DNA from: a virus
Taxonomy: Duplodnaviria; Caudoviricetes
Direction: 5' to 3' (one strand)
IMG/VR virus record: IMGVR_UViG_3300020042_005023
Location: 1-38,613 of that record
Length of the DNA: 38,613 nucleotides
In this document: positions 1-37,691 of the stretch, in pieces
Numbering within the stretch: position 1 is the first letter of the stretch
Layout of the letters: each line of letters opens with the position of its first letter
Notes under the pieces: generated by a model
Seen by the model: only the letters and a program-made list of their open reading frames with translations
Database searches by the model: none
Told to the model about the DNA's origin: nothing
Position numbers and translations under genes: made by a program

Positions 1-29
1 CCGTCATATAGCACCTTTTTTGTTAAATG

Positions 30-260
30 TTAACTCCTCGATTTGGCGACTAAGCCGTCGTCAAGGATTGCCTGTAGGCGGGCTTTCAACCGCTCAAGTC
101 CTTTGAGCGTGTGAAACATGTTGGAGCGGGCGTCGTCGTCGGCGTAACCCGACATGCGCCACTCTTCAAAAATATCTTTTTCCACTTGGGCAAACGCTTC
201 CTTGAGAAGTTCATCATCAAGAAGACGCTTTGCGTGGTTAGCTTTTGATATAGGGTCCAT
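30..260 (-). CDS. Small head-module protein (between portal region and scaffold), copy 1
   Basis: 76 aa, conserved in the second copy, coupled to the upstream gene. Confidence 0.8.
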   Translation of the reverse strand: MDPISKANHAKRLLDDELLKEAFAQVEKDIFEEWRMSGYADDDARSNMFHTLKGLERLKARLQAILDDGLVAKSRS

Positions 261-1708
261 TAGATCAACGGCATCAAAGCGGGGTTGATGGTCATCGCGG
301 GCTGCGCTTGTGGCGCAGGGGCGTTTGCCGGAAGAAGGCCACTATACTGCGGCTGAAAGAACATAGCTTCTGGGCCAAAACCATACCGCTCATAATCCGA
401 GATGTTCGGATTGACGCGCATATCTTGGCGGGGGGCAAAGCCTGCGCCCGTGCCAAATGGGGAGACATACGGCGTTGCCGTACCTGTGCCGCCACCGCCA
501 GCCAAAAGGCTTTGCAGAAGATCAGCCCCGACACCACCAATGGATAGGAGTTGCGGTATGGTCAGGCCAGTGCCGAGAACGCCATCTTTACCAGAAGGCG
601 GTGCTTCCGCCGCAAGGGCAGCGTCCATTGGGAGAGTTCCGAGCACCGCAGGTAGACCTGCAAGGGCGGAGCCTAGACCGGGGTCTGGCGTTACCGTAGG
701 CACGTTGGCCTCGACAACTATCGGGTTCCGCTCGGCCTCGATATCTTCCGCCGTTTTGGGTTGGTTTGCAGCCAATTCGCCCGAAAGCATCTCGTTGACA
801 GGGACAGAGAACGCCGCTCCGAACGGTAAGCCAGACCCAGATATGGCCCTGTTGCCGCTGACAATGATAGGTTCTATACCGGCGTACATATCAACTGGCG
901 GTAGCAACGCTTCCGGTAACGGCTGTTGCGCAAACTGCTCGGCGGGTGTCTGGTAGCCGCTTAGTGCACGCGAAGCTGCGTTGGCTGCTTCCGATAGAGC
1001 CGCTTGGCCGAGCGCGCCGCCTGCGCCTTGCAACGCCTGTGAAAGGCCAGTGACTACGATGTCGCCTGTGGCTTGCTTTGCTAATTCTTCCGCAGTCTTG
1101 CCCGCGACTGTACCCCCGATTTCTCCCAACACGCCGCCAAGTGCTTTATCAGCCCCAGTAGCCCCTACCGCACCGGCACTGGCAGCGGATAATCCGGCTC
1201 GGAGCAATGTGTTTTCTAGACTGCGCCCTTGGGCAACGCTTGACGCCGCAGAACCCAAAGCCGCGCCAAGAATTGGGCCAACGCCGGGGATAAAGCTGGC
1301 GGCAATCGGCAACGCCACATCCGCAATCTTGCCGAGAACGTTCTCGTTAACTTTCTCGCGGGCAACATCGTTCCAGCGCGTGCCGCCCACACTGCCGTCG
1401 GTGTTAAGGTAACGGTCGCCAGTCTGGATCATCCAGCCAGCCTTGTTACCTTTTTCGTCTGTTATAGATTGTCCTAGGGCGACCGCTTGCCGGGCCGCTT
1501 CAGGGCCAAAGCCACTAAACAGCACTTTGCCCTTGTTGTCTACCATGCGTATTTCTTGTTCGTCACGGACGCGGAAAGTGTTATCCTGACCAAAGCCAGT
1601 CGCGTTTCCTTTGTTAGATAGAGCAGACGTAATCAGTTCGCCTACTGGCATCATGAAATCTGGACGTCCGAAACCAGCGTTAAGTCCGGGTGTATCACCA
1701 AAGGGCAT
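260..1708 (-). CDS. Variable Gly/Ala/Pro-rich virion/ejection-like protein, allele A, with TonB-box-like motifs
   Basis: 482 aa; start overlaps the portal stop; glycine-zipper segment IPGVGPILGAALGSAAS; DIVVTG, PIIVSG, PIVVEA motifs. Function inferred. Confidence 0.75.
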   Translation of the reverse strand: MPFGDTPGLNAGFGRPDFMMPVGELITSALSNKGNATGFGQDNTFRVRDEQEIRMVDNKGKVLFSGFGPEAARQAVALGQSITDEKGNKAGWMIQTGDRYLNTDGSVGGTRWNDVAREKVNENVLGKIADVALPIAASFIPGVGPILGAALGSAASSVAQGRSLENTLLRAGLSAASAGAVGATGADKALGGVLGEIGGTVAGKTAEELAKQATGDIVVTGLSQALQGAGGALGQAALSEAANAASRALSGYQTPAEQFAQQPLPEALLPPVDMYAGIEPIIVSGNRAISGSGLPFGAAFSVPVNEMLSGELAANQPKTAEDIEAERNPIVVEANVPTVTPDPGLGSALAGLPAVLGTLPMDAALAAEAPPSGKDGVLGTGLTIPQLLSIGGVGADLLQSLLAGGGGTGTATPYVSPFGTGAGFAPRQDMRVNPNISDYERYGFGPEAMFFQPQYSGLLPANAPAPQAQPAMTINPALMPLI

Positions 1709-4080
1709 TACATCATCCCTTCTGGTGGGAGTTCAACGGGCGTCTGCATTTCAGTTGGCATCTGCGCTTGCTGAACTGCCTGTGCCATCTGCGCGTTCTG
1801 TACAGCCTGCGCAGCTTGCGTCGCCGCACGATCCATTTCGTTTTGTTGACGAACTAACTCACGGTCACGCAGCATCATCGCTTCAATGCCAGCCGTGTTG
1901 ACCGGAGCGCCGTACTTAGCTTCAAGTTCAGCCGCCTTAATCATTAGGTCGGCGTCAAGTTTGTCGCGCTCACGGTCGTCCTTGCGCAGCATCTCTTCGC
2001 GCTGCAACTCAAGTTCCGCTGCCTTCTTCTGGATGTCCGCACGGATTGCTTCCATCTGAACCTGAGACAGCATCTCTTCCGGTGTCGGCTGCGGTGGTGC
2101 AGGCGGTGGCGGGGGCGGCATCATGGCTGGGTCTTTGAAGAATACAGTTGGGTCTTTGTATCCAGCCAGCGCCATCATCTGCGCCAGCGTATTGTAGTAG
2201 CCTTGCATGTCAACCAACGGCGCGCCGGTCTGCATCAACATCTCTTGCTTGGCTGCGACTTGACCTAAGAACGCCATCTTCTCTTCGTTGCTGCCCGTGC
2301 CAATAGCGACGTTGACGACAACATCCATGTTCGCGTCCCATACCCGTGGGTCAATCGGAACGAACGTGTTGCGCAGACGCACCATGCGCGGCGCGTCTTG
2401 GTTCTTGGTGATAAGCTGCATTGACTTGCGGAACAGGCCCTTCATGCCTGTCTCAGCGAAGATACGGCAAATCAGTTCGATGTGTTGCGCCGCTGCGGTA
2501 ATCGTGGCCGCAACAGCAGCGCGGGTCGAAGACTGAAGCGCGTTTGCATCGAGGCCAGATGCGGCCTTGGAAATACCTGTGCGGTTCTCGCGCAGTTCAT
2601 CCATGTATTGCAACATCGGGAAGGCTTGCTGTCCGACGAACGGCATAGTGAACGGCTGCACCATACCTGGTGCGCGCATACGGATGATGCCACCAACTTC
2701 GGTGTTCATTACGTCTTCAAGGTTGACTTGGCCTTCAACAACACCCGTGCGTGGGTGGATTGACTGAGCCAAGCTGTCCAGCGTGTTACGCAGGATATTC
2801 GACTTGATAAGCTGAATGTCCATCGTCACGTCGGCAATCGACATACCGAAGAATGTGTGCGGCTCTGGATCAGGGCAGAAGTCTACGAACGGAATAAAGT
2901 CGCAGGGTTCGTAGTGCAGTATCTTGTTAGCCGAGCCAGCAACGCAGACGCGGCAAAGTTCCGCAATCCCGTCGCCGTCCATGTCAACATACACATAGCC
3001 CTCGATGTATAGGACTTTGCGCGATGTCGTATCTGTGCGGCCAGTAATCTGAACGAACGCTTGTGGGTTACGGTCGAAGGCTTCTTGGTTGCCTTCAAAG
3101 TCATCAAGCGTTTCGTAGCCAAGGTCTTGGACCTCATCGAAATCGTAGCCCATCTTCACAAGATCGGACACGGTAACGTAACGACGGTGGGCTACAAATT
3201 CGGCTGTCTCAATGGAACGCGCACGGCGGTCAATCAGAAACTCTTCTGGCGGTACGGACTGAACGCACAGACGGCCCTTCTCAACTGTACGAACAACCGT
3301 GCAGTCGTATGTCGCGGGTGGGGGCGGGGCCGGCATACCCATCATTTCAGGCGGAACCATCGGCACTGGGCCGTAGGTAATCTCTACGTCCTTAACTTCG
3401 ATGTTTTCATCGGCCTGAAGAACCGAGAAGGTAGCCTCGTCCAGACCCGTAAAGTAATGGGTCGTGACATCTTTCTCAGTATTCCACCAGACTTTCATGA
3501 TACCGTTCTTACGGATCAGTGCGTCCTTGAATGTGGAATAGCATTCGCTAAATAGGTTGTTGTCGCGTGTCAGGCAGTAGTTAACATAATCCGTTGCTTG
3601 CTGCGCGCTTTCAATATCTTCAGGGCCGTTCGGCGCAAACTCGACGACGTTGTTCGCCGCGAAGAATACTTTCATAATCGACGGCATCATGGCCTGTACA
3701 GTATCCCGTACATCCATAGACATCGCCTGCGACCGGCCTTCCTCTTCGTTGCCGAAAGGTTCGCCCTTATAGTATTGGCCAGCAAGCGCACGCTCCGGCG
3801 AGATAACATCGTCGATGTAATCTTGCGCGTCGTCAATCTCAGCGGTGATAATGTTCTGAAGTTCTTCTTCGGATACAGGGTCTTCTACCTGTTCGTCTTC
3901 CATTTCAGGCTCTTCAATAGTAACTTCCGTACCGTCGGCAAGTTCCATTGAAGTTTCATTGTACATGTCTTCGCTGTCGCCGTTTTCAGAGTTGGTGTTA
4001 GGAACCCCCGTATCTTGATACATACGGTTGTTCTTAGCCATAGTAGCCTTGGTCGGCTTACGGTTATTGCGATATGCCAT
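1708..4080 (-). CDS. Portal protein (P22/SU10-like)
   Basis: 790 aa; YYKGEPFGNEEEGRS, VPPEEFLID, DGDGIAEL, PHTFFG motifs; Q/M/P-rich tail; downstream of TerL. Confidence 0.93.
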   Translation of the reverse strand: MAYRNNRKPTKATMAKNNRMYQDTGVPNTNSENGDSEDMYNETSMELADGTEVTIEEPEMEDEQVEDPVSEEELQNIITAEIDDAQDYIDDVISPERALAGQYYKGEPFGNEEEGRSQAMSMDVRDTVQAMMPSIMKVFFAANNVVEFAPNGPEDIESAQQATDYVNYCLTRDNNLFSECYSTFKDALIRKNGIMKVWWNTEKDVTTHYFTGLDEATFSVLQADENIEVKDVEITYGPVPMVPPEMMGMPAPPPPATYDCTVVRTVEKGRLCVQSVPPEEFLIDRRARSIETAEFVAHRRYVTVSDLVKMGYDFDEVQDLGYETLDDFEGNQEAFDRNPQAFVQITGRTDTTSRKVLYIEGYVYVDMDGDGIAELCRVCVAGSANKILHYEPCDFIPFVDFCPDPEPHTFFGMSIADVTMDIQLIKSNILRNTLDSLAQSIHPRTGVVEGQVNLEDVMNTEVGGIIRMRAPGMVQPFTMPFVGQQAFPMLQYMDELRENRTGISKAASGLDANALQSSTRAAVAATITAAAQHIELICRIFAETGMKGLFRKSMQLITKNQDAPRMVRLRNTFVPIDPRVWDANMDVVVNVAIGTGSNEEKMAFLGQVAAKQEMLMQTGAPLVDMQGYYNTLAQMMALAGYKDPTVFFKDPAMMPPPPPPAPPQPTPEEMLSQVQMEAIRADIQKKAAELELQREEMLRKDDRERDKLDADLMIKAAELEAKYGAPVNTAGIEAMMLRDRELVRQQNEMDRAATQAAQAVQNAQMAQAVQQAQMPTEMQTPVELPPEGMM

Positions 4081-4089
4081 GTTCTAGCC

Positions 4090-4239
4090 TTACTTCTTTT
4101 TAGTCTTGACGTCTTTGGCGTGTACAAGTTTTTTAGAAGTACTGCCATGCTCTTTACCAGAATACAAAGCCGCACCCATTTTATGGGTAGCGCCTTTCCA
4201 CTCCGTGCCATTTGGTAGGTAGTGCTTTACACCCTTCAC
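4090..4239 (-). CDS. Small basic hypothetical protein (49 aa, GTG start)
   Basis: Hand-translated MKGVKHYLPNGTEWKGATHKMG...KTKKK; overlaps the upstream stop (GTGA). Confidence 0.6.
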   Translation of the reverse strand: MKGVKHYLPNGTEWKGATHKMGAALYSGKEHGSTSKKLVHAKDVKTKKK

Positions 4240-4397
4240 TTCTTTTTAGCTTTCATCGGCTTTGCGGTCTTGGCCGCAGCCTTAAACGCAGCCGCAGTAG
4301 GAGCGCCTTTGGTTCCCGGCTTACGCATCTTTTCACCAGAACCAGCTTTGATCCGGTCCTTCTTGGCTGCGATGTTGCTGTATAGACCCATCTTCAT
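4236..4397 (-). CDS. Small basic hypothetical protein (53 aa)
   Basis: Hand-translated MKMGLYSNIAAKKDRIKAGSGEKMRKPGTKGAPTAAAFK...; ATGA coupling; type common near portals of aquatic phages. Confidence 0.75.
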   Translation of the reverse strand: MKMGLYSNIAAKKDRIKAGSGEKMRKPGTKGAPTAAAFKAAAKTAKPMKAKKK

Positions 4398-4684
4398 TTT
4401 GACTTCCCCTTGTTTCGGGTTGATATGGCTTTGGCTTTCGACTTCGCGTCTGCTTTAGATGACGCACCCCACGCTTGCAGCGATAGGAGCAGGCGGGTTG
4501 GTTCGCCTTTCGCATTACGCTCTGGCCCCGGTGTGTTCCCCATGCGCGCTAAGAATGATGCTCTCCGTGGATTGTCACCTGATTTGACAGGTGCTTTCAA
4601 GTTGGCCCCTTCAGTCTTCTTGAAGTGGCTACGGCCCGCTTCATTGAGGCCACCCTTTGGATTTTGAAAACGCTTCGCAACCAT
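4394..4684 (-). CDS. DUF6321-like small basic phage protein
   Basis: KGGLNEAGR...NLKAPVK.GDNPRRASFLARM...SL.AW pattern; start reassigned to ATG at 4684. Confidence 0.75.
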   Translation of the reverse strand: MVAKRFQNPKGGLNEAGRSHFKKTEGANLKAPVKSGDNPRRASFLARMGNTPGPERNAKGEPTRLLLSLQAWGASSKADAKSKAKAISTRNKGKSK

Positions 4685-4688
4685 GCAA

Positions 4689-5117
4689 CTAAACCTGTCT
4701 CTTCGGCGTATACGCGCCGCGCTCACTCAAGTACACAATGGCCCGGTAAAGAATATCTGTATTTTCTCTAGCGTGGCCAAGAACTAAATTACACTTCTGA
4801 CAAAGTATGCCGCGTATGTCCCCAGTCTCATGGTTATGGTCTACGACACCTGATCTCTTACCCTTATACGCTATTGTCTCAGGTATTTCTACCTTACAAA
4901 TACCGCAAGCAAAATTATGGTCAGCGATTAGGTTACGATATTCCTCGACGTCAATACCGTACCGGCGTTGAAGGTTACGATTGCGGTTATAGTCTGGGTC
5001 AGCGTCTCTAAAGCGTTGTTGGTGTTCGCGCACGCACGGCTTACAGGTGCGTCTCTGGAAGTAGAAGTCATCTATAGCCTTCTCTTCGCCACATTTTGGA
5101 CAAGTCTTTGTACGCAT
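4689..5117 (-). CDS. Endonuclease VII-family (HNH-like) nuclease
   Basis: N-terminal CxxC..CxxC; RRYGI; CGIC; VDHNHETG.IRGILCQKCN.VLG. Confidence 0.9.
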   Translation of the reverse strand: MRTKTCPKCGEEKAIDDFYFQRRTCKPCVREHQQRFRDADPDYNRNRNLQRRYGIDVEEYRNLIADHNFACGICKVEIPETIAYKGKRSGVVDHNHETGDIRGILCQKCNLVLGHARENTDILYRAIVYLSERGAYTPKRQV

Positions 5118-5164
5118 AGGTCCGACCCCTATGGATAACTATAGCATAACATTTCAAGAAAAGC

Positions 5165-5301
5165 AAAAAAGGGGGTGGCGGCGGGATGAACAAACGGGGC
5201 AGCATCCTATCGTTCCATCGCTATTACCGGATAAACCGCGCACACCCCTAGCTGCCTATGTTGCCCGACAGGAGAGGGAGAGAGAAAAACCTGCCGGGCA
5301 A
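5165..5301 (-). other. Structured intergenic element: hairpin with CU-rich loop, then long stem ending in a U-tract (terminator or sRNA)
   Basis: Inverted repeat ttgcccgacagg/cctgccgggcaa at 5261-5301; ggggtg/cacccc stem at 5171-5248 followed on the minus strand by T6. Confidence 0.5.
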
Positions 5302-5329
5302 AACAAATATATCACATCGTTAGTTTATG

Positions 5330-6739
5330 TCAAACAATGCCCCGTATATTCCTACGCAAGGCTCCGGACTTGTTGGCCATTGAGTAGCCGTGCATGATAG
5401 TCGATATATCGGTGGCAAGGCACAAGCATAAAGCATCCGCCTTATCTGGCGATGGAAGCCCACGCTTCTTCATGCTTTCCTTGCTCTCGATCTGCATCTT
5501 GCCCGACGATGTAAACGTGTAACGCGGTGACGCCAACTCGGCGAACAACTGCTCATCCTTCGGTATCTTAACATCGCGGTTCGCCAGCCATCCTTTACAC
5601 TTGAACCACAATTCGGCGCGTAGGTTGGCGTAAGTCCCTTTCATCGCGGGGCTTTCGGCTACGTTAATGCCACGCGCTGGTAGACCCAGTTCGCGCAGAC
5701 GGTCAAGGACACCCGCTCCAAGCCCGATGCTATCGACCAGTATCTCGACTGGCTGCTCCGATGGCGTCAGCGCCTCATACTCGGCAACGACTGCACCTGT
5801 TAGCTGCATCAGGTCCAGACCTTTCCAAGTCTGTATCTCTTCAACAACTGGGCCGCGCCGCTTGGCGAGTGCGCTGGCATCGGAACCCATACGCGCAACG
5901 TCTAAGCCCCATACGCTCTTGGTGTTCTTGGCAATCTTGATCTCGCGGTTCATGGCCCCGTCAATCAACTCGACAGGGATAACGGTATCTTCTTCACGCG
6001 GTGGGAAGTTACCAAGAACACGGACGTGATACGCTGGGCTGTCGTCACCGTATCGCAACTGCATCTCTCGGACAAACGCATCGGACACGCGTGGGCTGTC
6101 GAGGCAGCTAACGTGGAAGGTTTTCCATTCACCCTTCAGACGGTTGTGCGTATCATAGAACAATCCGCTGTTTCGCGTAGGGTTTCCCAGAAGAAGCGTT
6201 GTCGCATTATGGCCGGACATAGAACCGGACGCAGCTTCATACACACTTTCAGGTATACCCGACGCCTCATCGGCGACGAGCAGCACGTTATCGGCGTGGA
6301 TACCTTGCAAGGCTTCTGGCGTTTCTGCTCGGCTCGTTCGGGCGGAGATAAAGGCTTCACTGGCTGCGGCCTTCAGTTCGATACGGTCGGCCTTGACTTC
6401 GATCAGAACCTTCAGCACTTCAGGTAGTTCATTCACCCATCGCTTCAGTTCCGCGAACATCGCATCGAACAACTGTGCGGATGTCGGCGCAGTCACAACA
6501 ACCTTCACGGGATACCGCGTCAGGAAGTAATGAAGCATGGCCCAGCTTGCGGCTGTAGATTTACCCACACCGTGGCCTGAGCGGACGGAGATACGACGGT
6601 TCCCGGCGCTAATCGCTTTCAGAAACTCGACTTGCCAAGGGTCTGGCTTAGTTCTCAGAATATCCCGCACGAACCCTACGGGATCATCGCGGTATTTCTT
6701 CAGGAACTCCAAAAAGAAGTTCGGCTCAGATTTCGTCAT
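5330..6739 (-). CDS. terL: Terminase large subunit
   Basis: Walker A SGHGVGKS, Walker B LLVADEASG, GNPTR motif, RNase H nuclease GLDVAR...SPDKADAL. Confidence 0.96.
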   Translation of the reverse strand: MTKSEPNFFLEFLKKYRDDPVGFVRDILRTKPDPWQVEFLKAISAGNRRISVRSGHGVGKSTAASWAMLHYFLTRYPVKVVVTAPTSAQLFDAMFAELKRWVNELPEVLKVLIEVKADRIELKAAASEAFISARTSRAETPEALQGIHADNVLLVADEASGIPESVYEAASGSMSGHNATTLLLGNPTRNSGLFYDTHNRLKGEWKTFHVSCLDSPRVSDAFVREMQLRYGDDSPAYHVRVLGNFPPREEDTVIPVELIDGAMNREIKIAKNTKSVWGLDVARMGSDASALAKRRGPVVEEIQTWKGLDLMQLTGAVVAEYEALTPSEQPVEILVDSIGLGAGVLDRLRELGLPARGINVAESPAMKGTYANLRAELWFKCKGWLANRDVKIPKDEQLFAELASPRYTFTSSGKMQIESKESMKKRGLPSPDKADALCLCLATDISTIMHGYSMANKSGALRRNIRGIV

Positions 6740-7406
6740 TCTTATCTCCCCGGATTACGCGTGCGATTGTTTGATGGCTGACTGATATACCATGACGCTT
6801 TGCTACGATAATAGCAATATCGCGGTAGCTATGGCCTTTAACGCGTGCGGCTTTCATTGTAATCATTGCGTCCTGCGCGTTTGGTTCTGGATGCAGCTTG
6901 GCCTTGCGGCCTGTGCCTGACTTCTTATACCCAAATGGTACTTTGCCACCGACATATCCACCCTGTGACCGCTTTGCTCTTTTACCGGCGGTGACACGTT
7001 CTCTAATACGGCGGCGCTCTTCGCCTGAGAAGACGGCCATGATTTCTAGCATGAAGCGTCCGTTCGGGTTGGCTTTGTCCATGACATTACCATAGCCATT
7101 GATGATCAGATTGATGTTCGCCGTCTCCCAGTCGGCAATCACGTTTAGTGCGTCCCGTGCGTCACGGAACATACGGTCTAGCTTCGATACGATAACCGTA
7201 TCGCCGGGCCGAAGGAACGCCAGCTTGCAACCTTCTTCTCGGCGGAGCAGCGGGACACCGCCAGAGACGCCGCGCTCTTCGTATATATGCTCCAGTTCCA
7301 AATTATGCGTGAGCGCGATGCCTTGTATTTGGCGGGCTTGGTCATCGAGTGATGTGTTCTCGATCTGGTCTTCAGTCGAGACGCGAGTATATCCATAAAC
7401 AGCCAT
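6726..7406 (-). CDS. Serine recombinase (resolvase/invertase catalytic domain plus short C-terminal DNA-binding region)
   Basis: YTRVST catalytic Ser, GVSG, VSKLDRMFR, ERRRIRER, GGKVPFGY; RBS GAGGAG; TTG-free ATG start; overlaps the terL start by 14 nt. Confidence 0.93.
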   Translation of the reverse strand: MAVYGYTRVSTEDQIENTSLDDQARQIQGIALTHNLELEHIYEERGVSGGVPLLRREEGCKLAFLRPGDTVIVSKLDRMFRDARDALNVIADWETANINLIINGYGNVMDKANPNGRFMLEIMAVFSGEERRRIRERVTAGKRAKRSQGGYVGGKVPFGYKKSGTGRKAKLHPEPNAQDAMITMKAARVKGHSYRDIAIIVAKRHGISVSHQTIARVIRGDKNDEI

Positions 7407-7834
7407 TGTATTTCTCCTCTTTTTGATTGTTCATCGCTGTTACACTCTACTGTTACATCTTGGCAAGTAAAAAGTTAGGAATTTTTTGGAAGGGATTATG
7501 TTAAATACGAGGGTGTAGGGGGGTGGGGGCCACATCTTGATGTCTGTTAGGTTGTACACACATACCCCCCGCGCGTGGCGGGGGCCGGGGGGGGTCAAAC
7601 CGAAGGTCACTTTGCGCCTCATACCCAAAAAACCACGCATTTCTGCGGATTTTACGCTGTAACAGTGTATTAGTGCTGGACCAAATGGGGTCGGAGGCGC
7701 ACGAAAAGCGAAGCGCGGCGCTGCCCGCTTCCCTTGTTGAAACGGCACACCGTTCCTGCGCTAGAATTTATATAGGCAACGCAATCACATTGCGATGTGA
7801 TGTAAATTATATCTATCCTGATTACGATTTGTGC

Positions 7835-7863
7835 TTGACTGGTTGGAACGCTGTTCCTATTGG
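7835..7863 (+). promoter_or_regulatory. Putative sigma70 promoter with palindromic operator GGAACGCTGTTCC
   Basis: TTGACT at 7835, palindrome at 7845-7857 in the spacer; weak -10; heads the + strand small-gene operon. Confidence 0.5.
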
Positions 7864-7893
7864 TAACGCCTCAACAAAAGAGGGACTAACGAA

Positions 7894-8007
7894 ATGACTT
7901 TTGATTTATCACAATACATACCATTCAACGCATTCGCATTCCTATGGATAGCCTGCACGTTGGCTGGTTTCACATTCGCTATCCGTAACGACAAAGGAGA
8001 GAACTAA
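7894..8007 (+). CDS. Small membrane peptide (37 aa)
   Basis: MTFDLSQYIPFNAFAFLWIACTLAGFTFAIRNDKGEN; GAGGGA RBS; one hydrophobic helix. Confidence 0.55.
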   Translation: MTFDLSQYIPFNAFAFLWIACTLAGFTFAIRNDKGEN

Positions 8008-8010
8008 ACC

Positions 8011-8148
8011 ATGATTAAACCACAACAAGCCGCGCCATTAGGCCGGAGCCACCGTGTATCATCCGACAGTGCGTGGCCGCTGCGCGGCCTCGATGGTAAG
8101 ACATTCGCGGAACGCCGCGCAGAACGTGAAAAGGAACTAAGCAAATGA
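8011..8148 (+). CDS. Hypothetical protein (45 aa)
   Basis: AAGGAG RBS; MIKPQQAAPLGRSHRVSSDSAWPLRG...; ATGA coupling to the next gene. Confidence 0.6.
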   Translation: MIKPQQAAPLGRSHRVSSDSAWPLRGLDGKTFAERRAEREKELSK

Positions 8149-8327
8149 CCAATGAAGACGATATGTTAATCACACACGCCGCACGGGTTATCTGTGCCGC
8201 GCAATCCGACAAGCAGGACAACAGCGACAGCCAGCTATATCGTTCTGGTGGCTGGGACCACACTATCTGGATGCGGCTCGTTGAGCAGGGCATCCGCAAG
8301 GGCATTGAGATTGGGCGGATGCTATGA
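8145..8327 (+). CDS. Hypothetical protein
   Basis: 60 aa, in an ATGA-coupled chain. Confidence 0.7.
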   Translation: MTNEDDMLITHAARVICAAQSDKQDNSDSQLYRSGGWDHTIWMRLVEQGIRKGIEIGRML

Positions 8328-8518
8328 CCGACTATGATGATGAAGATGACGAATTGGCACTGCCCGAACGATACATCGAACGGGCCGGGGAAACCTTGGC
8401 CTACCGATTGATGGAGTATCTGGAGTTTCTTGGCGTGATAGGCAAAGACCATGTGTCCTATCTGCGCTGGCCACCGATTGAATTAATCGAGGATGCAGAA
8501 AAGGACATGCTGGAATGA
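8324..8518 (+). CDS. Hypothetical acidic protein
   Basis: 64 aa, ATGA-coupled. Confidence 0.7.
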   Translation: MTDYDDEDDELALPERYIERAGETLAYRLMEYLEFLGVIGKDHVSYLRWPPIELIEDAEKDMLE

Positions 8519-8736
8519 CAAGTGATGGTGAAGGCCCCCAAAAGATAAAGATTGTTAATACCGCTATCGGCAAAATCCCAGTCACCGATGAGTTTATTCC
8601 TCGCAAAGATTGGGACGCATATATGGAAATGTCCCGTCAATACGCACGGGACGCATGGTGCGCTGGCGTTGACTATACCGCCCTAACCGTAGAGCAATTC
8701 CGTAAAGGTTATAGGGAACAGGATCAAAGCAAATGA
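8515..8736 (+). CDS. Hypothetical protein
   Basis: 73 aa, ATGA-coupled, AAGGA RBS. Confidence 0.65.
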   Translation: MTSDGEGPQKIKIVNTAIGKIPVTDEFIPRKDWDAYMEMSRQYARDAWCAGVDYTALTVEQFRKGYREQDQSK

Positions 8737-8912
8737 CAAGTGATGAATTTAAAGCAACACGCGAGACGCTGAAGCTGACGCAGGGCCAGCTTGCCCAGAA
8801 GATTGGACTGTCCGAACGGGCTATCCGATATTACGAACAAGGTGGCCGAGCTATCCCGGCTCCTGTCTCTATCCTCTTAGAGACGTTTCTAAGGGGTCTG
8901 GAGCGTGCCTAG
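8733..8912 (+). CDS. XRE/Cro-family helix-turn-helix regulator (59 aa, below ORF-track cutoff)
   Basis: Hand-translated MTSDEFKATRETLKLTQGQLAQKIGLSERAIRYYEQGGRAIPAPV...; classic XRE pattern. Confidence 0.88.
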   Translation: MTSDEFKATRETLKLTQGQLAQKIGLSERAIRYYEQGGRAIPAPVSILLETFLRGLERA

Positions 8913-9000
8913 CTATAATCGGGACCGTAACCTAGCAATTGCCATGTATGCCTCTCTATGGGCTTTATATGGGCTTCTAACACTGTTAAAAGGATAAGGC

Positions 9001-9525
9001 ATGGCTGGACATATTAAACGGCGCACGATTGCGTCGAACTTGGACAAGGTTGGCGAGAGTGTTTTGCTGGAGAAGATTGCATCCGGCCTGACAATGGCTG
9101 GTCTCGCCCGTGAACTGAACATCAGCAACCTGTCGCTCTATAATTGGATACGCAAAGACCTCGACCGGGAAGAGCGGTTCAAGCAGGCTAGGGCAATCGC
9201 GGCGGATCAATGGGCAGATGAATGTCTGGACATTGCCGACGCCTCGGACAACACATCGGCCAATGCCGACAGGCTCAAGATTGAAACGCGCAAATGGCTG
9301 GCTGGGGTGACTGCTCCGGATAAGTTCCAAGCCAAGCCGACCACAGCAATCCAAGTGAACGTAAACCAACTTCATCTTGATGCACTGAAGCAGCTAAACT
9401 TGGCGTCATCAAATCCTCATGACGACATCGAGGACGACACCATCATCGACATCACACCACCCAAGCAAGTCGGCTCTCATAACCTCGATGCGGACGACTT
9501 GCCGGGTGTTTTTGACGACGATTAA
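9001..9525 (+). CDS. terS: Terminase small subunit (Sf6 gp1-like)
   Basis: LEKIASG.T...AR, LYNW, QARA..AD..ADE.LDIAD, RLKIETRKWLA pattern. Confidence 0.85.
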   Translation: MAGHIKRRTIASNLDKVGESVLLEKIASGLTMAGLARELNISNLSLYNWIRKDLDREERFKQARAIAADQWADECLDIADASDNTSANADRLKIETRKWLAGVTAPDKFQAKPTTAIQVNVNQLHLDALKQLNLASSNPHDDIEDDTIIDITPPKQVGSHNLDADDLPGVFDDD

Positions 9526-9539
9526 CGGAAAACTGCCAT

Positions 9540-9820
9540 CCGTGCACGGTTTGCATATCTCCGTGCACGGTTCGGGCCGGGTTTAGGGCCGGGTTTACCC
9601 ACGCATTTCCGCCAATGTGCACGGAGTGCACGGTTTGTCGGCGCATTAGTCCCCATAAATAAGTAACAGTGTAATATACCACTTCAACACTGTTACTTTT
9701 ATTAGGGCGGATTAACTTTTTTAAACCGTGCACTTCTGGCACATCCTTAGATTTCAGCCATTTTATCTGGCCCTAAACCGTGCACCAACCATGCACGGAC
9801 CCTCTCAAACCGTGCACGGA
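9540..9820. repeat. Iteron cluster and AT-rich palindromic core: candidate replication origin
   Basis: Seven GTGCAC cores (GTGCACGG left, AAACCGTGCAC right) flanking an AT-rich 12-bp inverted repeat at 9661-9698. Confidence 0.7.
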
Positions 9821-9866
9821 TTTGGCTCAAGCCATGATAGGTCCACATCGGCCCTAATATTAGCAC

Positions 9867-9895
9867 TTGACAAGACCGGAACACTGTTCCATAAT
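9867..9895 (+). promoter_or_regulatory. Sigma70 promoter TTGACA-17-CATAAT with operator GGAACACTGTTCC
   Basis: Near-consensus hexamers; perfect palindrome at 9878-9890. Confidence 0.7.
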
Positions 9896-9950
9896 GCAAA
9901 CGCGGATCGAGAGGGCCAACCCTCCGACCGTTCTTAAAAAGGAAGATGAG

Positions 9951-10109
9951 ATGACAACAAAATATCAGATACACGGCTACGATAAATATATGTCGGAAGA
10001 CTACATCAAGGCCACGCTTTACGACACATACGAAGCGGCCTTCGCCATGGCCCATTCAAACCACGAGTGGGTGGTGAAGGTTGAGCCGGTCAAAGGGGAA
10101 GAGCCATGA
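9951..10109 (+). CDS. Hypothetical protein (52 aa)
   Basis: MTTKYQIHGYDK... after AAGGA, downstream of the promoter. Confidence 0.6.
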   Translation: MTTKYQIHGYDKYMSEDYIKATLYDTYEAAFAMAHSNHEWVVKVEPVKGEEP

Positions 10110-10285
10110 TTAGCATAGCCAAAAATGCAGACCGAATTGCGGACACCCTGCGCGACAATCAAGCCATGGATTGGGATTTGCTGCGCGATCTCTGCGACCA
10201 GCAGACCGGCGGCGACCTCGACTATCTGCAACTCGACCTACTAACCGACAGCGTGCAGTCTCGTTTGAGCAAGCAAGCCGAATAA
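10106..10285 (+). CDS. Hypothetical protein (59 aa)
   Basis: Hand-translated MISIAKNADRIADTLRDNQ...; ATGA coupling; ends at the terminator. Confidence 0.6.
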   Translation: MISIAKNADRIADTLRDNQAMDWDLLRDLCDQQTGGDLDYLQLDLLTDSVQSRLSKQAE

Positions 10286-13272: not shown

Positions 13273-13274
13273 GG

Positions 13275-18449: not shown

Positions 18450-18459
18450 GGAAACACCG

Positions 18460-20843: not shown

Positions 20844-20975
20844 TTAGAAGCTAGTTCGCAAGTTACTGCGTGGCCCCAAAGACTTACGGTGGCGAAGCCC
20901 GTCGGGTTTGTGGCGACGCTTTGCTTTCGGCTTCGGTTGCCACGACATATCTTTAGCGCCACTCTTCTTGGCCAT
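20844..20975 (-). CDS. Small basic peptide (43 aa)
   Basis: MAKKSGAKDMSWQPKPKAKRRHK...; TAATG coupling to the ejection gene. Confidence 0.55.
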   Translation of the reverse strand: MAKKSGAKDMSWQPKPKAKRRHKPDGLRHRKSLGPRSNLRTSF

Positions 20976-23629
20976 TACTCACCTTCGCTCATTTGAGTAG
21001 CACCCGCAGCCCCACCAGTAGCCGCAGCACCCGCAACAAACTGGTTAATCAGTTCAACCTTTTTGCCACCCGACGCTTGGCTAATCCGCAGAAGCAAATC
21101 GCGTGCGGGCTTGCTTTCGTAGAACCGCTTTGAAAGGCCAAAGCCAGCACTAAGGGCTAGGCCCTGTGGAACCGACAAACCAAGGAGAGTACCGATACCG
21201 CCAAACGCGCCCATTGTGGCAAGCGGCACAAGTTGTTCGCCTGTGCGCGGTAGGAACCGCGCCTCTTGCGCACGGCTGGTAGCGCGCAGAACTTCGGCTA
21301 GGCCCTTGACGCGGCGCATATCAGAAGCGCCAAAGAACTGTGAGAAGTTGTCCGATAGGCCCATGACTTCACGAGCAAATTTATTCGGGTCTACGTCGCC
21401 TGTTTCCTTATTCATCGCCCGCTTCGCAGCGTCCTGAATAAGCAATAGGCGGGCGCTTTCACGGCCATCTTTGCTGAGACTTGTGAATAGCGTGCGAACA
21501 TCCGCTGGTTTCGATCCAGTCAGCATCTTCGTAACGAGAGTTGGATCAAACTCACCCTTGTTTAGCACGTTCTTCAGCCCACCAACACGCAGTTCGTCCG
21601 CAGTACGGGCCAACTTTGTGTTTGCTACCTTCCAGAGGTTGAAGTCCTTGGCCGTGCCATTTGCCTTGATATAGTCACCCATGTCTTCATTGAGCGCAGT
21701 GTAGACTTTCTGGAATGCTTTCTCAGACTTATCTGGGATTGACGCAAGATTAGGGTCGCTCTTTAGATTGAATAGCGTTTTGCGGTTAGCTTCAATCTTA
21801 GCAAGATCACCCGGCCCCGTAAGGCTTTTGCGAACATCTTCAAGCTGGCGAATTAAGGGGCCAAGCTGCGTTGGAAGGTTTTCCGCTTTCAGATTGCTTA
21901 GCAGTCCATCAATGGCTGAAACTGATTTCGTTGCAGCAACGTCACCGCTACCAGCGAACTGCGCGATTACGTTCTTCTTCATAGTGTCGTAGCGGTTAAT
22001 TGTAGCCGCACGGGTCTGGTTTAAATTGCTCACAACTTCAGACGCAAGGTCGCTATCTACGCTGACACCATAGTCCGCCAGAAGATTTTCAACGGCGTTT
22101 TGCCGTGCGACTTGCTGTTCACGGCGTAAACCCGCCGTACCAAGTGGCATAACTTCACCAACTGACTGCGTAAGCTGCGCTATGCGGGTTGCAGGCGGCA
22201 TAACGTCACTAGTCATGACTGGGATATTGGCCTGCTGACCAGCATCAATGATTTGTTCTGGAAAGATTTGTTGACCAGAAAAACGACCAGCGGCTGGGAC
22301 GTTTGTGCGAGGCGCGCCAGTAAATGTACCCGGACCACCCGGCAAGAAACGATTGGCAAGCGCACCGGCCCCCAACGCGCCAACCCCGCCGATAGCCGCA
22401 CCTTGAAGACGATTACCTTCGCCAGCTTCTCCGCTACCGTACAGCGCACCGTATGCGGTTTCAGCAATAAGCGGCGCGGCTCCGGCAAGCCGAGTGCCAG
22501 CGAGGATGCCTTGCGCACCGCGAATGGCTGGGATAGTCGCCATAGCACCGCCGGTAAGTTCGCCGACAAATGAAGAGACAGGGGCTGTTTCGCGTAAATA
22601 TTCTTTAGTTTCCGGGGCCATGCCGTAGCCCGCAGTGAGCGCGTTGGCCGCACCACCGAAGTAGCCAGCCGCCGATTGACCGGCCTCAGTCTTCAGCAGT
22701 TCGCCAAGAAGACCCTGTACTGCACCTGTTTCGCCAGTTGGCGTAACAACAAACTGCATAGGCCCGCCTTGTTCCGCTGCCTTACGAACAACGTCGAGAA
22801 AGGCAGGGTCAATCTGACGACCGTAACGCTGCCCAATAAACGCTATTTCTGTAAGGATTTGATTTGGAGTTTTTCCGGCGTTAATACCCGCGTTATAGAC
22901 TTCCTGCATTTGAGTTTGTACAGCGCGGTCTTCATCGGTAAGCTGTGCCGCACCAGCCGTAGCCGGAGCAAGCTGACCGGGTTTAGCACCGGCTTCCGAA
23001 ATAACTGCTTTAGCTGGAGCCAGCGACGGTGCGAGAGTGATGCCCTGCTTATCGGGATCGCCACCCGCATCCGCTACAAGACCACGGTAGGTCTCTGCGA
23101 ATGTGTTGTATGACTGCGCCCGCGAACCGTAAAGGCTAAGTGCAGTGTTCATCATGTCGGCGCGCTGTTCGGGTGACAAACGCTTACCAGTGGCAAGACG
23201 GTTGTAGTAGTTACGAATTTGTTCAGGAACACCAGCCGCGTTCTGTACGCTGGCCTGTTCACCTTCACGGACAACCGAAGTTGGATCAAGTGATTTCATG
23301 AAGGTGAAAATCCCTCCAAGATCGGTCATTGCCGAACCTTCACCCTGCATGAGCGTAACAATCTGGCGGGTGGCGTTGGATACATTCCGGAAGTCCCTGA
23401 CTTCAGGGTTGCCAAGAAACTCTTTGCGATAGTCGCCAATAAGACCACGTTCGGAAGTCGCAATGTCGCGTATTTCACCCCGTTTGGCTCGGTCCTCAAT
23501 GTCGCGCTGGCGCTTCTCGTCACGCTCCTTACGCGCAGCTTCTTCAGCCGCGCCGGGGCCTGCTACAAAAGTGCCACCGCCGGAAGGCGCTGAAGGAGCA
23601 TACTTAGCAAATGGATTAGGTTCAGCCAT
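20975..23629 (-). CDS. Large DNA ejection (internal virion) protein, P22 gp16-like position
   Basis: 884 aa; NPFAKY start, DPTSVVREGE motif, Gly/Ala hydrophobic segments; last gene of the virion module. Confidence 0.75.
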   Translation of the reverse strand: MAEPNPFAKYAPSAPSGGGTFVAGPGAAEEAARKERDEKRQRDIEDRAKRGEIRDIATSERGLIGDYRKEFLGNPEVRDFRNVSNATRQIVTLMQGEGSAMTDLGGIFTFMKSLDPTSVVREGEQASVQNAAGVPEQIRNYYNRLATGKRLSPEQRADMMNTALSLYGSRAQSYNTFAETYRGLVADAGGDPDKQGITLAPSLAPAKAVISEAGAKPGQLAPATAGAAQLTDEDRAVQTQMQEVYNAGINAGKTPNQILTEIAFIGQRYGRQIDPAFLDVVRKAAEQGGPMQFVVTPTGETGAVQGLLGELLKTEAGQSAAGYFGGAANALTAGYGMAPETKEYLRETAPVSSFVGELTGGAMATIPAIRGAQGILAGTRLAGAAPLIAETAYGALYGSGEAGEGNRLQGAAIGGVGALGAGALANRFLPGGPGTFTGAPRTNVPAAGRFSGQQIFPEQIIDAGQQANIPVMTSDVMPPATRIAQLTQSVGEVMPLGTAGLRREQQVARQNAVENLLADYGVSVDSDLASEVVSNLNQTRAATINRYDTMKKNVIAQFAGSGDVAATKSVSAIDGLLSNLKAENLPTQLGPLIRQLEDVRKSLTGPGDLAKIEANRKTLFNLKSDPNLASIPDKSEKAFQKVYTALNEDMGDYIKANGTAKDFNLWKVANTKLARTADELRVGGLKNVLNKGEFDPTLVTKMLTGSKPADVRTLFTSLSKDGRESARLLLIQDAAKRAMNKETGDVDPNKFAREVMGLSDNFSQFFGASDMRRVKGLAEVLRATSRAQEARFLPRTGEQLVPLATMGAFGGIGTLLGLSVPQGLALSAGFGLSKRFYESKPARDLLLRISQASGGKKVELINQFVAGAAATGGAAGATQMSEGE

Positions 23630-23630
23630 G

Positions 23631-23933
23631 TTATTTCCCGATTACAACGTGCCAATGCGGCCCAGTGGCGTACTTGGATGGATTATTAACTTCGTCCCTA
23701 GCTTCTACAATATTGTATCCGGCTTGGCGAATGGAATTGATGTATTGATTGAACGAGACACCCGGAATTGGGGCGATGTCAACCGCGCCCCGGCTAGTGG
23801 CATGATACGAACGCGGGTTGGCCTTTGACAGTGGATGGCTTGGCCCGCGATAGCCTGAAGTGATACGGGCATTCGGGAAAAGTTCTTTAACTACAGACCT
23901 ACCGTCCGCGAAAACCGCCGGTAGTGTTACCAC
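23631..23933 (-). CDS. Peptidase M15-like Zn peptidoglycan hydrolase domain
   Basis: ITSGYR, SYH, AVD, HWHV; possible GTG start after GGGAGG, or a frameshift fusion. Confidence 0.75.
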   Translation of the reverse strand: MVTLPAVFADGRSVVKELFPNARITSGYRGPSHPLSKANPRSYHATSRGAVDIAPIPGVSFNQYINSIRQAGYNIVEARDEVNNPSKYATGPHWHVVIGK

Positions 23934-24669
23934 TACCGCCTCCCAGATATTGCGCGGCTGTGCCCTTACCAAAGATGCTCTCGAACTGTTCCGGAGTTCC
24001 CTTGCCGGAACGAAGGTCGTCGATAGCTGACTGTGGAATAGTCTGTGCGGCGGGGCGTTGTGCGCCACCGCTAGGCATAAGATCAGATGCCTGTATGTAT
24101 GTTGTCCCAGACGGGCCGGTTACCGTGATAACACCCTGCTCCGCAGCAACATTGCGGAGAATTTTCTGGGCTTCTGGTGATCCTAGTGGGATACCGGCTG
24201 CTTGGATTTTCTTTTCGGCGTCGGTCAGTTCGCGGCCTTTTTGCCGATTAATCATATATTCGGCCAACTGCTTGCCGTCCAACAACGCAACCATATTCCG
24301 TTCACTGGGCGGGAGCGAATTAAGGAACGCTTGCTCCTGCTGTGATTTCTGCTGCAACTGGGCAATCTGAAACTGTGCGTTCAGTTTATCCATCTGCTGC
24401 TTGCGTATGCCCTGAACAACAGCGGCTGGATCAGAAGCGCCACGGCTACCCGCAGCCTGAAGTACTTGACCAACCGCAGCTATTTTCTGGCCAGTTGATA
24501 GCGGACCAATGCCGCCGCTCATGAGAGCCTGCATATCTTGAACATACTTTGCCGTTGGCGAAAGCGGAGCGTCCATTGTAGTGGGCATAACAGAATTAAA
24601 AACCGCTCCGCCACTTGGCGAAGTGCGGTTTAATCCAACTGAACGCATTATGTCTTGGATTGCCGACAT
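23899..24669 (-). CDS. DNA ejection protein (P22 gp20-like position)
   Basis: 256 aa, Q/A/G-rich, located between ejection genes. Confidence 0.65.
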   Translation of the reverse strand: MSAIQDIMRSVGLNRTSPSGGAVFNSVMPTTMDAPLSPTAKYVQDMQALMSGGIGPLSTGQKIAAVGQVLQAAGSRGASDPAAVVQGIRKQQMDKLNAQFQIAQLQQKSQQEQAFLNSLPPSERNMVALLDGKQLAEYMINRQKGRELTDAEKKIQAAGIPLGSPEAQKILRNVAAEQGVITVTGPSGTTYIQASDLMPSGGAQRPAAQTIPQSAIDDLRSGKGTPEQFESIFGKGTAAQYLGGGSGNTTGGFRGR

Positions 24670-24673
24670 CTAC

Positions 24674-25519
24674 TTAACCACCTTTGCCGAAGAGTTCAAG
24701 GAGAGTACCAATCGTGGACGCAGCCGAACCAACTTGGCCCAGCGTTGACTGGCCGGGTGCAGTTGTCGTTTGCGTGACTGGGGACGGAAGACCCTGCGAA
24801 CCCATGAGCAACGTCTGAAGCTGCTGCTGCGGGAAGCCACGCTGTTCGAGGAAGTCCTTGTAGGCCAGATCGAGGTTTTGCTGAGCCATGCCGCGCTGTG
24901 CTTGGCCTGCGCCTTGAAGCATTGCAGCGTAGGACTGCTGATTGCCAAGCGCCTGTTGGCCGTAGCCTGCAAGAGCGGATGCACCCGCAAGCTGCTGACC
25001 CGGCAGACCCTGTGCAAACCCAGCGGCTTGCGTGTATCCCTGATTATACAGGTTCGCCAGCGTCTGGGCTGTATTCAAATCTTCTTCGCCCGCAAGCTGC
25101 GCCTCATATACGCCACGACGTTCGTTGCCAAATGCCCGCGAAGCAGCAAGCTGAGCCTTGGTCGCAGCGTCACGTTCGGCGCGGTTCTGTGCCAGTCGAG
25201 CCATCGTGGCGTCGATGACGTTGGTCTGGAACGGCGACATGAAGCCGGAGACATCTTGCTGGAACTGCTGCGGCGAGTAGCCTGCTGCACGCTGGGCTAC
25301 TTCAGTAGCCCGTTGAAGTTGCGGCATACCAACTTGGTTGGTGGCTGCACCAATTGCAGTCTGGAACGCCTGTTCTTCAGCAGGACGGAAGCCCGCGATG
25401 CGTGGCCCCTGATATGCCTGATACGGAATAGCCGCAACTTGCTGTGCGGCTCCATAGTTACGCGCCAGAATATCCTGAATGAAAGGATTTAACGCCTGTT
25501 GCGTAGTAGTTACCGCCAT
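24674..25519 (-). CDS. DNA ejection/pilot protein (P22 gp7-like position)
   Basis: 281 aa, Q/A-rich; PYQAYQG.RIA, FMSPF..NVID, AFG..R motifs; amphipathic tail. Confidence 0.75.
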   Translation of the reverse strand: MAVTTTQQALNPFIQDILARNYGAAQQVAAIPYQAYQGPRIAGFRPAEEQAFQTAIGAATNQVGMPQLQRATEVAQRAAGYSPQQFQQDVSGFMSPFQTNVIDATMARLAQNRAERDAATKAQLAASRAFGNERRGVYEAQLAGEEDLNTAQTLANLYNQGYTQAAGFAQGLPGQQLAGASALAGYGQQALGNQQSYAAMLQGAGQAQRGMAQQNLDLAYKDFLEQRGFPQQQLQTLLMGSQGLPSPVTQTTTAPGQSTLGQVGSAASTIGTLLELFGKGG

Positions 25520-36042: not shown

Positions 36043-36273
36043 TTAACTCCTCGATTTGGCGACTAAGCCGTCGTCAAGGATTGCCTGTAGGCGGGCTTTC
36101 AACCGCTCAAGTCCTTTGAGCGTGTGAAACATGTCAGAGCGTCCGCTATAGTCGGTATGGGCCGACATACGCCACTCGTCAAAAATATCTTTTTCCACTG
36201 CGGCAAATGCTTCCTTGAGAAGTTCATCATCAAGAAGACGCTTTGCGTGGTTAGCTTTTGATATAGGGTCCAT
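36043..36273 (-). CDS. Small head-module protein, copy 2
   Basis: Same as 30..260 except a central patch (SAHTDYSGRSD vs SGYADDDARSN) and two further residues. Confidence 0.8.
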   Translation of the reverse strand: MDPISKANHAKRLLDDELLKEAFAAVEKDIFDEWRMSAHTDYSGRSDMFHTLKGLERLKARLQAILDDGLVAKSRS

Positions 36274-37691
36274 TAGATTATCGGCATCAAAGCAGGGTTG
36301 ATGGTCATCGCGGGCTGCGCTTGGGTTGGCGTAGCATTTGCTGGAAGAAGGCCAGTATACTCTGGCCGGAAGAACATAGCCTCTGGACCGAAACCATATC
36401 GTTCATAATCCGCGATGTTTGGATTGGCGCGCATATCTTGGCCTGTGCCAAAACCTACGCCCGCGCCTGTGCCAAACGGAGAGACGTATGGCGTCTGCGG
36501 GCCTGTGCTGCCGTCACCAGCCAAAAGGCTTTGCAGAAGATCAGCCCCTACACTACCAAGGGATAGCAGTTGAGGTACGTTCAGGCCCGTGCCGAGAACG
36601 CCGCCCTTATCGGGAAGCGTTGGCGGTGTTGATGGCGGGGCGACTAATGGGCCTAGAGTAGGGAGTATAGGTTCTTCAGGAGGGGGAGACACCACTGTTT
36701 GCGGCTGCATTAACGCCGCGTCTGCGGGTGGCGGGTTTAGCGGACTTAAACTTTCAAGTATAGAGCTAGTAGGAACGCTGGGTGCGGCTGCGAAAGCTAT
36801 AGGGTCGAAGCCGCTCGGAGGGTTTATGGGCCGGTATTTGCTAACAACGATGTCACCGTTGGCTTGATCAACGCCGTTGACGACGTTTGAACTTGCGCCT
36901 GTCCCAGTGCCACTCAAAACTGACGCCGCTGGATAAGCCGAGGCAAGCCCTGCGGCAAGTGCAGCGGTTTGCGCGGCGGTCAAGCCCGTAGCCCCCGTAA
37001 CAACGATTGGGGCTAGAGCGGAAGTTGCCGTAGCGGCGGGTATTGCTGCAACTGCGGGCAGCGCCGCAGCACCACCAGCCACAGCGCCGCCGGTAGCACC
37101 CGCGCCTATACCGGCGGTAGTTGTAGCGCCGCCAAGTTGACCGAGGAGCGCACCACCGCCGAAATACGCAGCAGCCGCAAGGGCTATCGGAGTGAGCGCC
37201 GGTAAAATTTTATCTTTGAATAAATCGTTCGGCATGTTGCCCGCAACAACAACCCCGCGCGGATCGCCGGGAGTGGAAAGGTCTAAGTACGCACCCGGCA
37301 TCTTCTCGTGCATATTCGTGACGCCGGATTGCGGGTTCGCGTCATACAGACGCCAATCAGCATTTTGGCCTTGCGTAGCACTTAGATTATTGGCGATATC
37401 CTGTATCTGCTGGATTGCTTCAGGCGTGTTACCTTGGGCAAGGATTGTGCCAGTCTTGTTGTCAACCAGTGTGTAGTTGTGACCCGCATACAGCCCCGTC
37501 GTCGTAGGAGCGCCCCCGGCTACTCCCTGGCCGTTTCCAAATTCAAGAAAGTTGTTTATCGAATATGGCGTTGGCGCTAGGTTCTGCGAAGCAATAATCT
37601 GCTCCCGCTGCGACGGGTCGCGTCCGGGTGGTACTATTGCCGCAAGCTGCGCAAGCGACATCGGATTATTACCATTATAATCTATAGCCAT
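36273..37691 (-). CDS. Variable virion/ejection-like protein, allele B, with TonB-box-like motifs
   Basis: 472 aa; C-terminal ~105 aa close to allele A; hydrophobic PIALAAAAYFGGGALLG; PIVVTG, DIVVSK. Confidence 0.75.
   Translation of the reverse strand: MAIDYNGNNPMSLAQLAAIVPPGRDPSQREQIIASQNLAPTPYSINNFLEFGNGQGVAGGAPTTTGLYAGHNYTLVDNKTGTILAQGNTPEAIQQIQDIANNLSATQGQNADWRLYDANPQSGVTNMHEKMPGAYLDLSTPGDPRGVVVAGNMPNDLFKDKILPALTPIALAAAAYFGGGALLGQLGGATTTAGIGAGATGGAVAGGAAALPAVAAIPAATATSALAPIVVTGATGLTAAQTAALAAGLASAYPAASVLSGTGTGASSNVVNGVDQANGDIVVSKYRPINPPSGFDPIAFAAAPSVPTSSILESLSPLNPPPADAALMQPQTVVSPPPEEPILPTLGPLVAPPSTPPTLPDKGGVLGTGLNVPQLLSLGSVGADLLQSLLAGDGSTGPQTPYVSPFGTGAGVGFGTGQDMRANPNIADYERYGFGPEAMFFRPEYTGLLPANATPTQAQPAMTINPALMPII

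Follow-up and report, generated by a model that had tools for sequence, protein, structure and literature searches.

Repeated TonB-box-like motifs in a family of short-tailed phage proteins, and their candidate role in TonB-powered entry

Introduction

The 38,613-nucleotide stretch of DNA analysed here, referred to as the window (IMG/VR record IMGVR_UViG_3300020042_005023), encodes beside its portal gene a protein with several hexapeptides that resemble the TonB box. This locus raises the question of whether a phage supplies TonB boxes of its own, and for what use. For short-tailed phages, the transport of ejection proteins through the outer membrane and the periplasm, and its source of energy, are not known to be explained; TonB boxes made by a phage would be one concrete answer, and would extend TonB parasitism from bacteriocins to virions. 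No report of a phage-encoded TonB-box protein was found in literature searches, in which subscription journals were poorly covered. New here are a defined protein family in two gene contexts, an apparently host-linked shift in the form of the box, and a cultured member.

Genome features and the two alleles

The window is the genome of a short-tailed phage (38.6 kb), in which a family scan identified terminase, portal, scaffold, major capsid protein, tail fibre, endolysin and an ejection cassette (Table 1). The capsid protein is nearest to those of spring-water phages, Sinorhizobium phage phiM5 (56%) and Methylophilales phage Venkman (51%). A serine recombinase/invertase-like gene (6726-7406) overlaps the start of the terminase gene in this apparently lytic genome.

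The two ends of the window (1-2630 and 36013-38613) overlap in the end of the portal gene (95%) and in the region of the 76-aa ORF (88%), and between these the alleles A and B differ. Contigs L033 and L034 connect allele A to the body of the genome at 98.7-99.2% identity, and positions 1-2782 are covered without any difference by a contig from another run; allele A is therefore real, and the two alleles stem from co-assembled strains. A duplication as the origin of the pair is ruled out by the joining of allele A to the genome body in L033 and L034. The record is a mosaic of two strains. A reading made earlier from the sequence alone (the sequence-only reading) had stated that the surroundings of the B motifs cannot be aligned to A. 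This applies to the DNA of 584-1705 and to the register of the boxes, but not to the proteins, which align with 37% identity (E 7e-70), best in the last 110 residues, and have an N-terminal domain in common (HMM E 1.9e-21). Allele A had no match by tblastn against 50,697 GenBank phages, neither allele was assigned to a family in scans of PHROGs and Pfam, and no RNA run was among the sequencing runs listed as containing the sequence.

Table 1. Features of the window that bear on the box protein
Feature	Position	Strand	Remarks
Allele A, 482-aa protein, three TonB-box-like motifs	260..1708	-	between portal gene and 76-aa ORF
Allele B, 472 aa, from co-assembled strain	36273..37691	-	
Portal gene	1708..4080	-	directly upstream of allele A
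76-aa ORF (phrog_8161), overlaps allele A stop codon	30..260	-	second copy 36043-36273
Three-gene ejection cassette (884, 256, 281 aa)	20975..25519	-	
Box-like motif A1, DIVVTG, residues 216-221	1046..1063	-	strong copy
Box-like motif A2, PIIVSG, residues 280-285	854..871	-	weak, deviating
Box-like motif A3, PIVVEA, residues 329-334	707..724	-	weak
Box-like motif B1, PIVVTG	36993..37010	-	
Box-like motif B2, DIVVSK	36837..36854	-	
Folded alpha/beta N-terminal domain, residues 21-120	1349..1648	-	common to both phage lineages and RW gp066c (HMM)
Gly/Ala-rich helical segment (glycine zipper), residues 124-194	1127..1339	-	AlphaFold2
Conserved C-terminal tail, residues 372-482, YxxYGxGPE motif	260..595	-	motif persists in lineage-2 homologues

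Motifs and protein anatomy

All five hexapeptides listed by the sequence-only reading translate at their positions. Elsewhere in the window, over all six frames, a pattern covering the five has no match, and shuffling either protein 20,000 times never produced two or more matches; this pattern was composed after the motifs had been seen, and the independent test lies in the homologues. When scored against a profile of real boxes that included plasmid receptor boxes, A1 reached 16.5, B1 7.8, A2 6.0, and A3 and B2 remained under 5. The five copies are thus unequal: A1 alone matches the profile strongly, and the other four score weakly. At the place corresponding to A3 the close homologues have a canonical xIVVTA, and the SKYR type seen in B2 recurs in 35 of 120 homologues.

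The AlphaFold2 model of allele A, built on 70 homologues, gives the N-terminal domain with a pLDDT of 89-98, followed by a glycine zipper that is moderately hydrophobic (peak 1.72 at residues 131-149). The pLDDT is under 50 at residues 179-236, 278-294 and 326-339, and all three A boxes are inside these segments; they are predicted to lie, not buried in a folded domain, but in a disordered and exposed linker between the N-terminal domain with the glycine zipper and the tail. A fold search of the whole model against the PDB yielded no match (best E 0.064; otherwise helical noise), and the N-terminal domain alone retrieved as its best PDB entry the small subunit of RuBisCO (Z 5.7, rmsd 3.3, 79 aligned), which is usual background. 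The best E value of a profile against PDB sequences was 0.1, a BFVD structure search returned only uncharacterised phage proteins, and the ESM Atlas contained no usable match.

Motif enrichment in homologues

Homologues were gathered by the C-terminal 111 residues alone, and the best 120 of 332 are termed close homologues; they are kin, and form two to four single-linkage clusters. The pattern [DEP]I[VI]V[TS][GA], taken from the sequence-only reading, matches 146 times in 103 of the 120, as compared with a mean of 0.115 in 200 shuffles, so that the enrichment implied by that reading is borne out. IVV is present in 119 of the 120, and most of these proteins carry two or three cores with a median spacing of 52 residues. 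A search with the whole protein among 50%-identity representatives added 143 new proteins among 150 listed of 263, termed distant homologues; since a whole-protein search scores the box region too, this set is not fully independent.

A profile made from 120 receptor boxes alone finds 95 matches in 68 of the 120 close homologues (shuffles 0.1) and 74 matches in 48 of the 143 distant ones (shuffles 0.2). Its density is 2.3 matches per 1000 aa in 64 target proteins, against 0.045 in 617 non-target ORFs of those loci. Background in the latter comes mainly from a single recurring match in an ORF of 225-253 aa, which is located 3' of the capsid genes at L059:9351-10028 and at six similar loci. A box-like hexamer was also seen in the 256-aa ejection gene of the window (24118-24135); it is probably due to chance, since it is not conserved in 23 distinct relatives.

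Comparison with receptor TonB boxes

Ten TonB-rich genomes supplied 140 receptors, from which the stretches preceding the Plug domain were taken. This gave 121 located boxes, of which one mis-pick (L131) was dropped to leave the 120 boxes of the profile; because the locating rule itself fixes the core, only the flanks and the variable positions are free evidence of likeness. Genome G045 is labelled sphingomonad from its receptor matches, which are mostly to Sphingomonadaceae plasmids, and the form of its boxes, together with a TonB orthologue, placed G174 in the same group. G001 is an Arenimonas bin, and the labels xanthomonad-type and alteromonad-type of receptor genome sets are presumed.

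In a leave-one-out trial, the classifier sorted 98 of the 120 real boxes correctly. The best class for 124 distinct phage motifs was sphingomonad-type in 77 cases, G200-type in 38, another in 9 and xanthomonad-type in none. The resemblance to the alphaproteobacterial form of the TonB box, which the sequence-only reading had pointed out, holds in this test, and 115 of the 124 motifs are sphingomonad-type or G200-type. Identity with a hexamer among the 65 sphingomonad-type boxes was found for 61 of 149 distinct phage motifs, and with a hexamer from the seven other genomes for none. The flanks match too, as 36 of 149 phage heptamers are also receptor-box heptamers, and 27 boxes of a named Novosphingobium plasmid (EMRT-2 receptors) have the same position profile.

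The core of the TonB box, hydrophobic-x-V-T-[GA] with an acidic lead-in, is present in A1 and in most copies of the family. Deviations occur at two positions: 3 of 5 window motifs and 3 of 5 motifs of the Caulobacter phage RW protein described below have a proline just before the core, which none of 147 receptor boxes has, and Thr follows the core in 70 of 149 phage motifs, against 127 of 147 receptor boxes. Many phage copies may bind TonB weakly or not at all. Sphingobium DdvT is reported to have a mutationally tested TonB box with the core IIVT, which is needed for uptake, and uptake is reduced in its T43A mutant (PMC6874591).

Predicted complex with TonB

Residues 203-236 of allele A were modelled alongside the C-terminal domain from the G045 TonB that is encoded beside exbB and exbD. 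The pair scored 0.51 and the best control 0.01, with contacts agreeing to at least 87% and a partner pLDDT of at least 54. In a benchmark, 116 of 157 solved pairs and 2 of 215 mismatched ones attained the mark; among those that did, 18 solved pairs and both mismatches scored 0.60 or lower. Solved TonB-box complexes exist, and the score may for this reason reflect likeness to them. The model gives weak support to a complex between the A1 segment and TonB's C-terminal domain.

Gene context in two phage lineages

In lineage 1 the portal gene lies directly upstream of the box gene in all 62 loci with enough flank (62/62), and the 76-aa ORF is its neighbour in 55 of 67 loci; the box gene is located in the head module, after the portal gene and outside the ejection cassette. 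Median identities are 92% for the portal and 97% for the capsid protein, whereas even the conserved tail of the box protein reaches 71%. The box gene is lacking in six examined phages with related capsids: five genomes (Venkman, phiM5, HTVC106P and two from Manatee Spring) have no gene at that place, and the sequence of a third from Manatee Spring is cut off. In lineage 1 it is therefore an accessory gene, and these related phages enter without it. In one Manatee Spring phage a 3-oxoacyl-ACP synthase gene lies in the tail operon (L389:7080-10387), and a Cys-rich protein with a doubled tape-measure-like module occupies the slot of the box protein.

The loci of lineage 2 belong to larger phages, several near 56 kb, and have the order tail-stabilisation gene, ORF of 76-90 aa, box gene and, directly thereafter, a phrog_4287 DNA-ejection gene. 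The 281-aa gene of the window matches the gene directly after the box gene in 10 of 11 of these loci. Between the lineages, stabilisation proteins and ejection proteins share only 21-32% identity over long matches. Many of the distant homologues end in a different, tape-measure-like module; of 30 that were scanned, 17 have a match to tape measure PHROGs, over a short C-terminal stretch of 25-100 residues only. The position in the ejection cassette and the tape-measure-like module suggest a virion role. The proposal of the sequence-only reading that the protein is ejected accordingly agrees with lineage 2, in cassette position and in a module common with tape measure proteins, and sits less well with lineage 1, where the gene belongs to the head module.

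A box was detected at threshold in 28 of 57 distinct proteins of the lineage-2 slot; of the 24 that have the N-terminal domain, 15 carry one. Ejection-cassette proteins that have no N-terminal domain (L287-L298, L307, L316, L318, L323) carry boxes of the form L-E-E-[IV]-x-V-T-[GA], which suggests a separate gain or another host group.

Caulobacter phage RW and the form of the box

The lineage-2 protein L257 finds the Caulobacter phages RW, RLK, KcrB and GB2A, and RW was reached solely through it; used as a single-protein query against IMG/VR, the RW protein retrieved no relatives. This protein, gp066c (QDH50427.1), is a homologue by its N-terminal domain (E 2.5e-14), glycine zipper and YGxGPE motif. 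Its gene has the layout of the lineage-2 ejection cassette and its tail is tape-measure-like; gp065c of GB2A is annotated as a tape measure protein. It contains five box-like motifs, beginning V-D or V-S, of which one passes the profile and none ends T-G or T-A.

An aliphatic residue three positions before the core is present in 5 of 5 motifs of gp066c and 8 of 8 boxes of Caulobacteraceae plasmids, as compared with sphingomonad-type boxes (9 of 65) and lineage-1 motifs (13 of 149), a shift that rests on 8 reference boxes from two plasmids (Caulobacter and Phenylobacterium) and on one phage species. The lineage-2 phage L257 has the sphingomonad form. The form of the box thus appears to follow the host and not the phage lineage, which is not what a phage-internal partner would predict. 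The four Caulobacter phages are reported to grow on C. vibrioides CB15, a genetic model strain, and the available text of the paper on them describes no function for gp066c and makes no mention of TonB or receptors (PMC11053796). A homologue in a phage of CB15 makes the metagenomic pattern bench-testable, and the box form could help to predict the hosts of uncultured freshwater phages.

For the window phage itself we infer a sphingomonad host. A search of positions 1-19500 against 401 genomes of the G045 family gave no spacer-like or near-identical match, and 15 short matches of 70-89% identity. The sole match in GTDB is L025, a 17-kb phage contig of lineage 1 in an Arenimonas bin, and Arenimonas boxes have another form. 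Arenimonas was rejected as host because the part of L025 that was read contains phage genes only; the contig is probably misbinned.

Relation to known systems

TonB-dependent transporters such as DdvT and the EMRT-2 plasmid receptors of Novosphingobium have the same core and flanks as the phage boxes, the same acidic or Gly lead-in, and the same exposed, disordered setting. The phage protein differs from them in having several boxes per chain, a relaxed Thr position and an occasional Pro, and in being phage-encoded; the Plug domain (PF07715) and the 22-strand barrel are absent (no Pfam match, and an AlphaFold2 model with neither). Group B colicins are similar in that a parasite brings its own box in an unstructured region. 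Their box is single and N-terminal, whereas the phage boxes are internal and in tandem, and the phage protein would be delivered by the phage tail. No cytotoxic domain was found by Pfam and no immunity gene among the neighbours, which are the portal gene and the 76-aa phage ORF. The protein would work like the TonB box of a bacteriocin, yet it is neither bacteriocin nor receptor. Import of colicin M (box ETLTV) is described as depending on a box that lies in an unstructured region, while TonB use without a TonB-dependent receptor is described for klebicin C and for colicins 5 and 10 (PMC11658791). Colicin B is reported to carry attached ssDNA into the periplasm (10.1101/2021.05.11.443673).

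Gly/Ala-rich helices and low complexity are shared with podovirus ejection or pilot proteins of the P22 gp7/gp20/gp16 type (phrog_4287, phrog_770) and with tape measure proteins. In contrast to these, A and B have no PHROG match, are encoded by an extra gene beside the usual three, and belong to the head module in lineage 1. RW gp066c is distinguished from A by its ejection-cassette position, tape-measure-like tail and more degenerate, Caulobacteraceae-like boxes. In phages T1 and phi80 infection is reported to be coupled to TonB energy (PMC11658791); there TonB acts via the host receptor FhuA, whereas the window phage would supply boxes of its own.

Interpretation

TonB binding in some form is considered likely. 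We favour, at somewhat better than an even chance, the explanation that the box protein is an internal virion (pilot or ejection) protein whose boxes engage TonB to power entry. The protein would be packaged via its conserved C-terminal tail, extended in lineage 2 by the tape-measure-like module, and would be ejected together with the other internal proteins. The glycine zipper may then insert in the membrane or oligomerise. TonB in the periplasm would grip the exposed boxes, and the TonB-ExbB-ExbD motor would help to pull the ejected proteins inward, possibly by gripping one box after another at intervals of about 50 residues, in the way that the single box of a group B colicin serves to pull it. 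A bolder version, to which we give a little less than an even chance, is that of a widespread class of podovirus pilot proteins with host-matched ladders of boxes, pulled stepwise by TonB-ExbBD and building a conduit for the DNA. If true, genome entry would be coupled to the proton motive force in a colicin-like manner without a TonB-dependent receptor, and the form of the box would help to set the host range.

A decoy function is considered unlikely. The boxes would here jam TonB, so that TonB-dependent uptake is blocked and competing phages or bacteriocins are kept out; the protein could do this once ejected, or as an inner-membrane protein made late in infection. All of the motif evidence applies equally to such a jammer, several boxes would suit the titration of TonB, and TonB box peptides are reported to inhibit the growth of P. 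aeruginosa (PMC9841981). The hydrophobic helix at residues 131-149 could serve as an anchor, and in lineage 1 the gene is accessory and far more variable than its neighbours. However, the ejection-cassette position and the tape-measure-like module suggest a role in the virion, inspection of the box protein by eye shows no evident signal peptide, and a decoy would have no need for a conserved folded domain and tail.

The boxes could also be beta-strands that dock on another phage protein (portal, capsid interior or ejection protein) or on some host protein that is not TonB, their likeness to receptor boxes being convergent; this we hold to be rather unlikely. A short strand of the form [DE]-I-V-V-[TS]-[GA] is a simple docking element, the deviations at the Pro and Thr positions would be accommodated, and the gene is fixed beside that of the portal in lineage 1. 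Convergence is harder to reconcile with the occurrence of the same form in both lineages despite the low identity between their stabilisation and ejection proteins, with its shift with the host inside lineage 2, and with flanking positions that match receptor boxes.

TonB may, alternatively, be a mere landmark, to which the boxes tether the ejected complex or by which they position it at the inner membrane, its force remaining unused. TonB is described as anchored in the inner membrane and extending into the periplasm (PMC7142613), and weak, repeated copies would suit avidity; even so, this use of TonB is judged improbable, for the known box users, receptors and colicins, employ the energised motor (PMC11658791) and the regular spacing of the boxes suits serial pulling. 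Chance, or a neutral relic in a low-complexity linker, would fit with the fact that four of the five window copies score weakly and with the kinship of the close homologues, but is very improbable in view of an about thousand-fold enrichment over shuffles that persists below 50% identity, the conservation of I217 and V219 of A1 in at least 90% of 70 aligned homologues amid a mean column identity of 17%, and the lack of conservation of the look-alike in the 256-aa ejection gene.

Endolysin

The chitinase-like endolysin of the window (27826-28437) is 70% identical to that of Flavobacterium phage immuto. Its best matches among cultured phages are those of Flavobacterium phages (70%), and are not informative on the host. 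In 4 of the 11 lineage-2 loci compared (L257, L262, L279, L333), from phages whose structural proteins show about 25% identity, the endolysin is 79-85% identical to that of the window, which may reflect gene exchange through a shared host.
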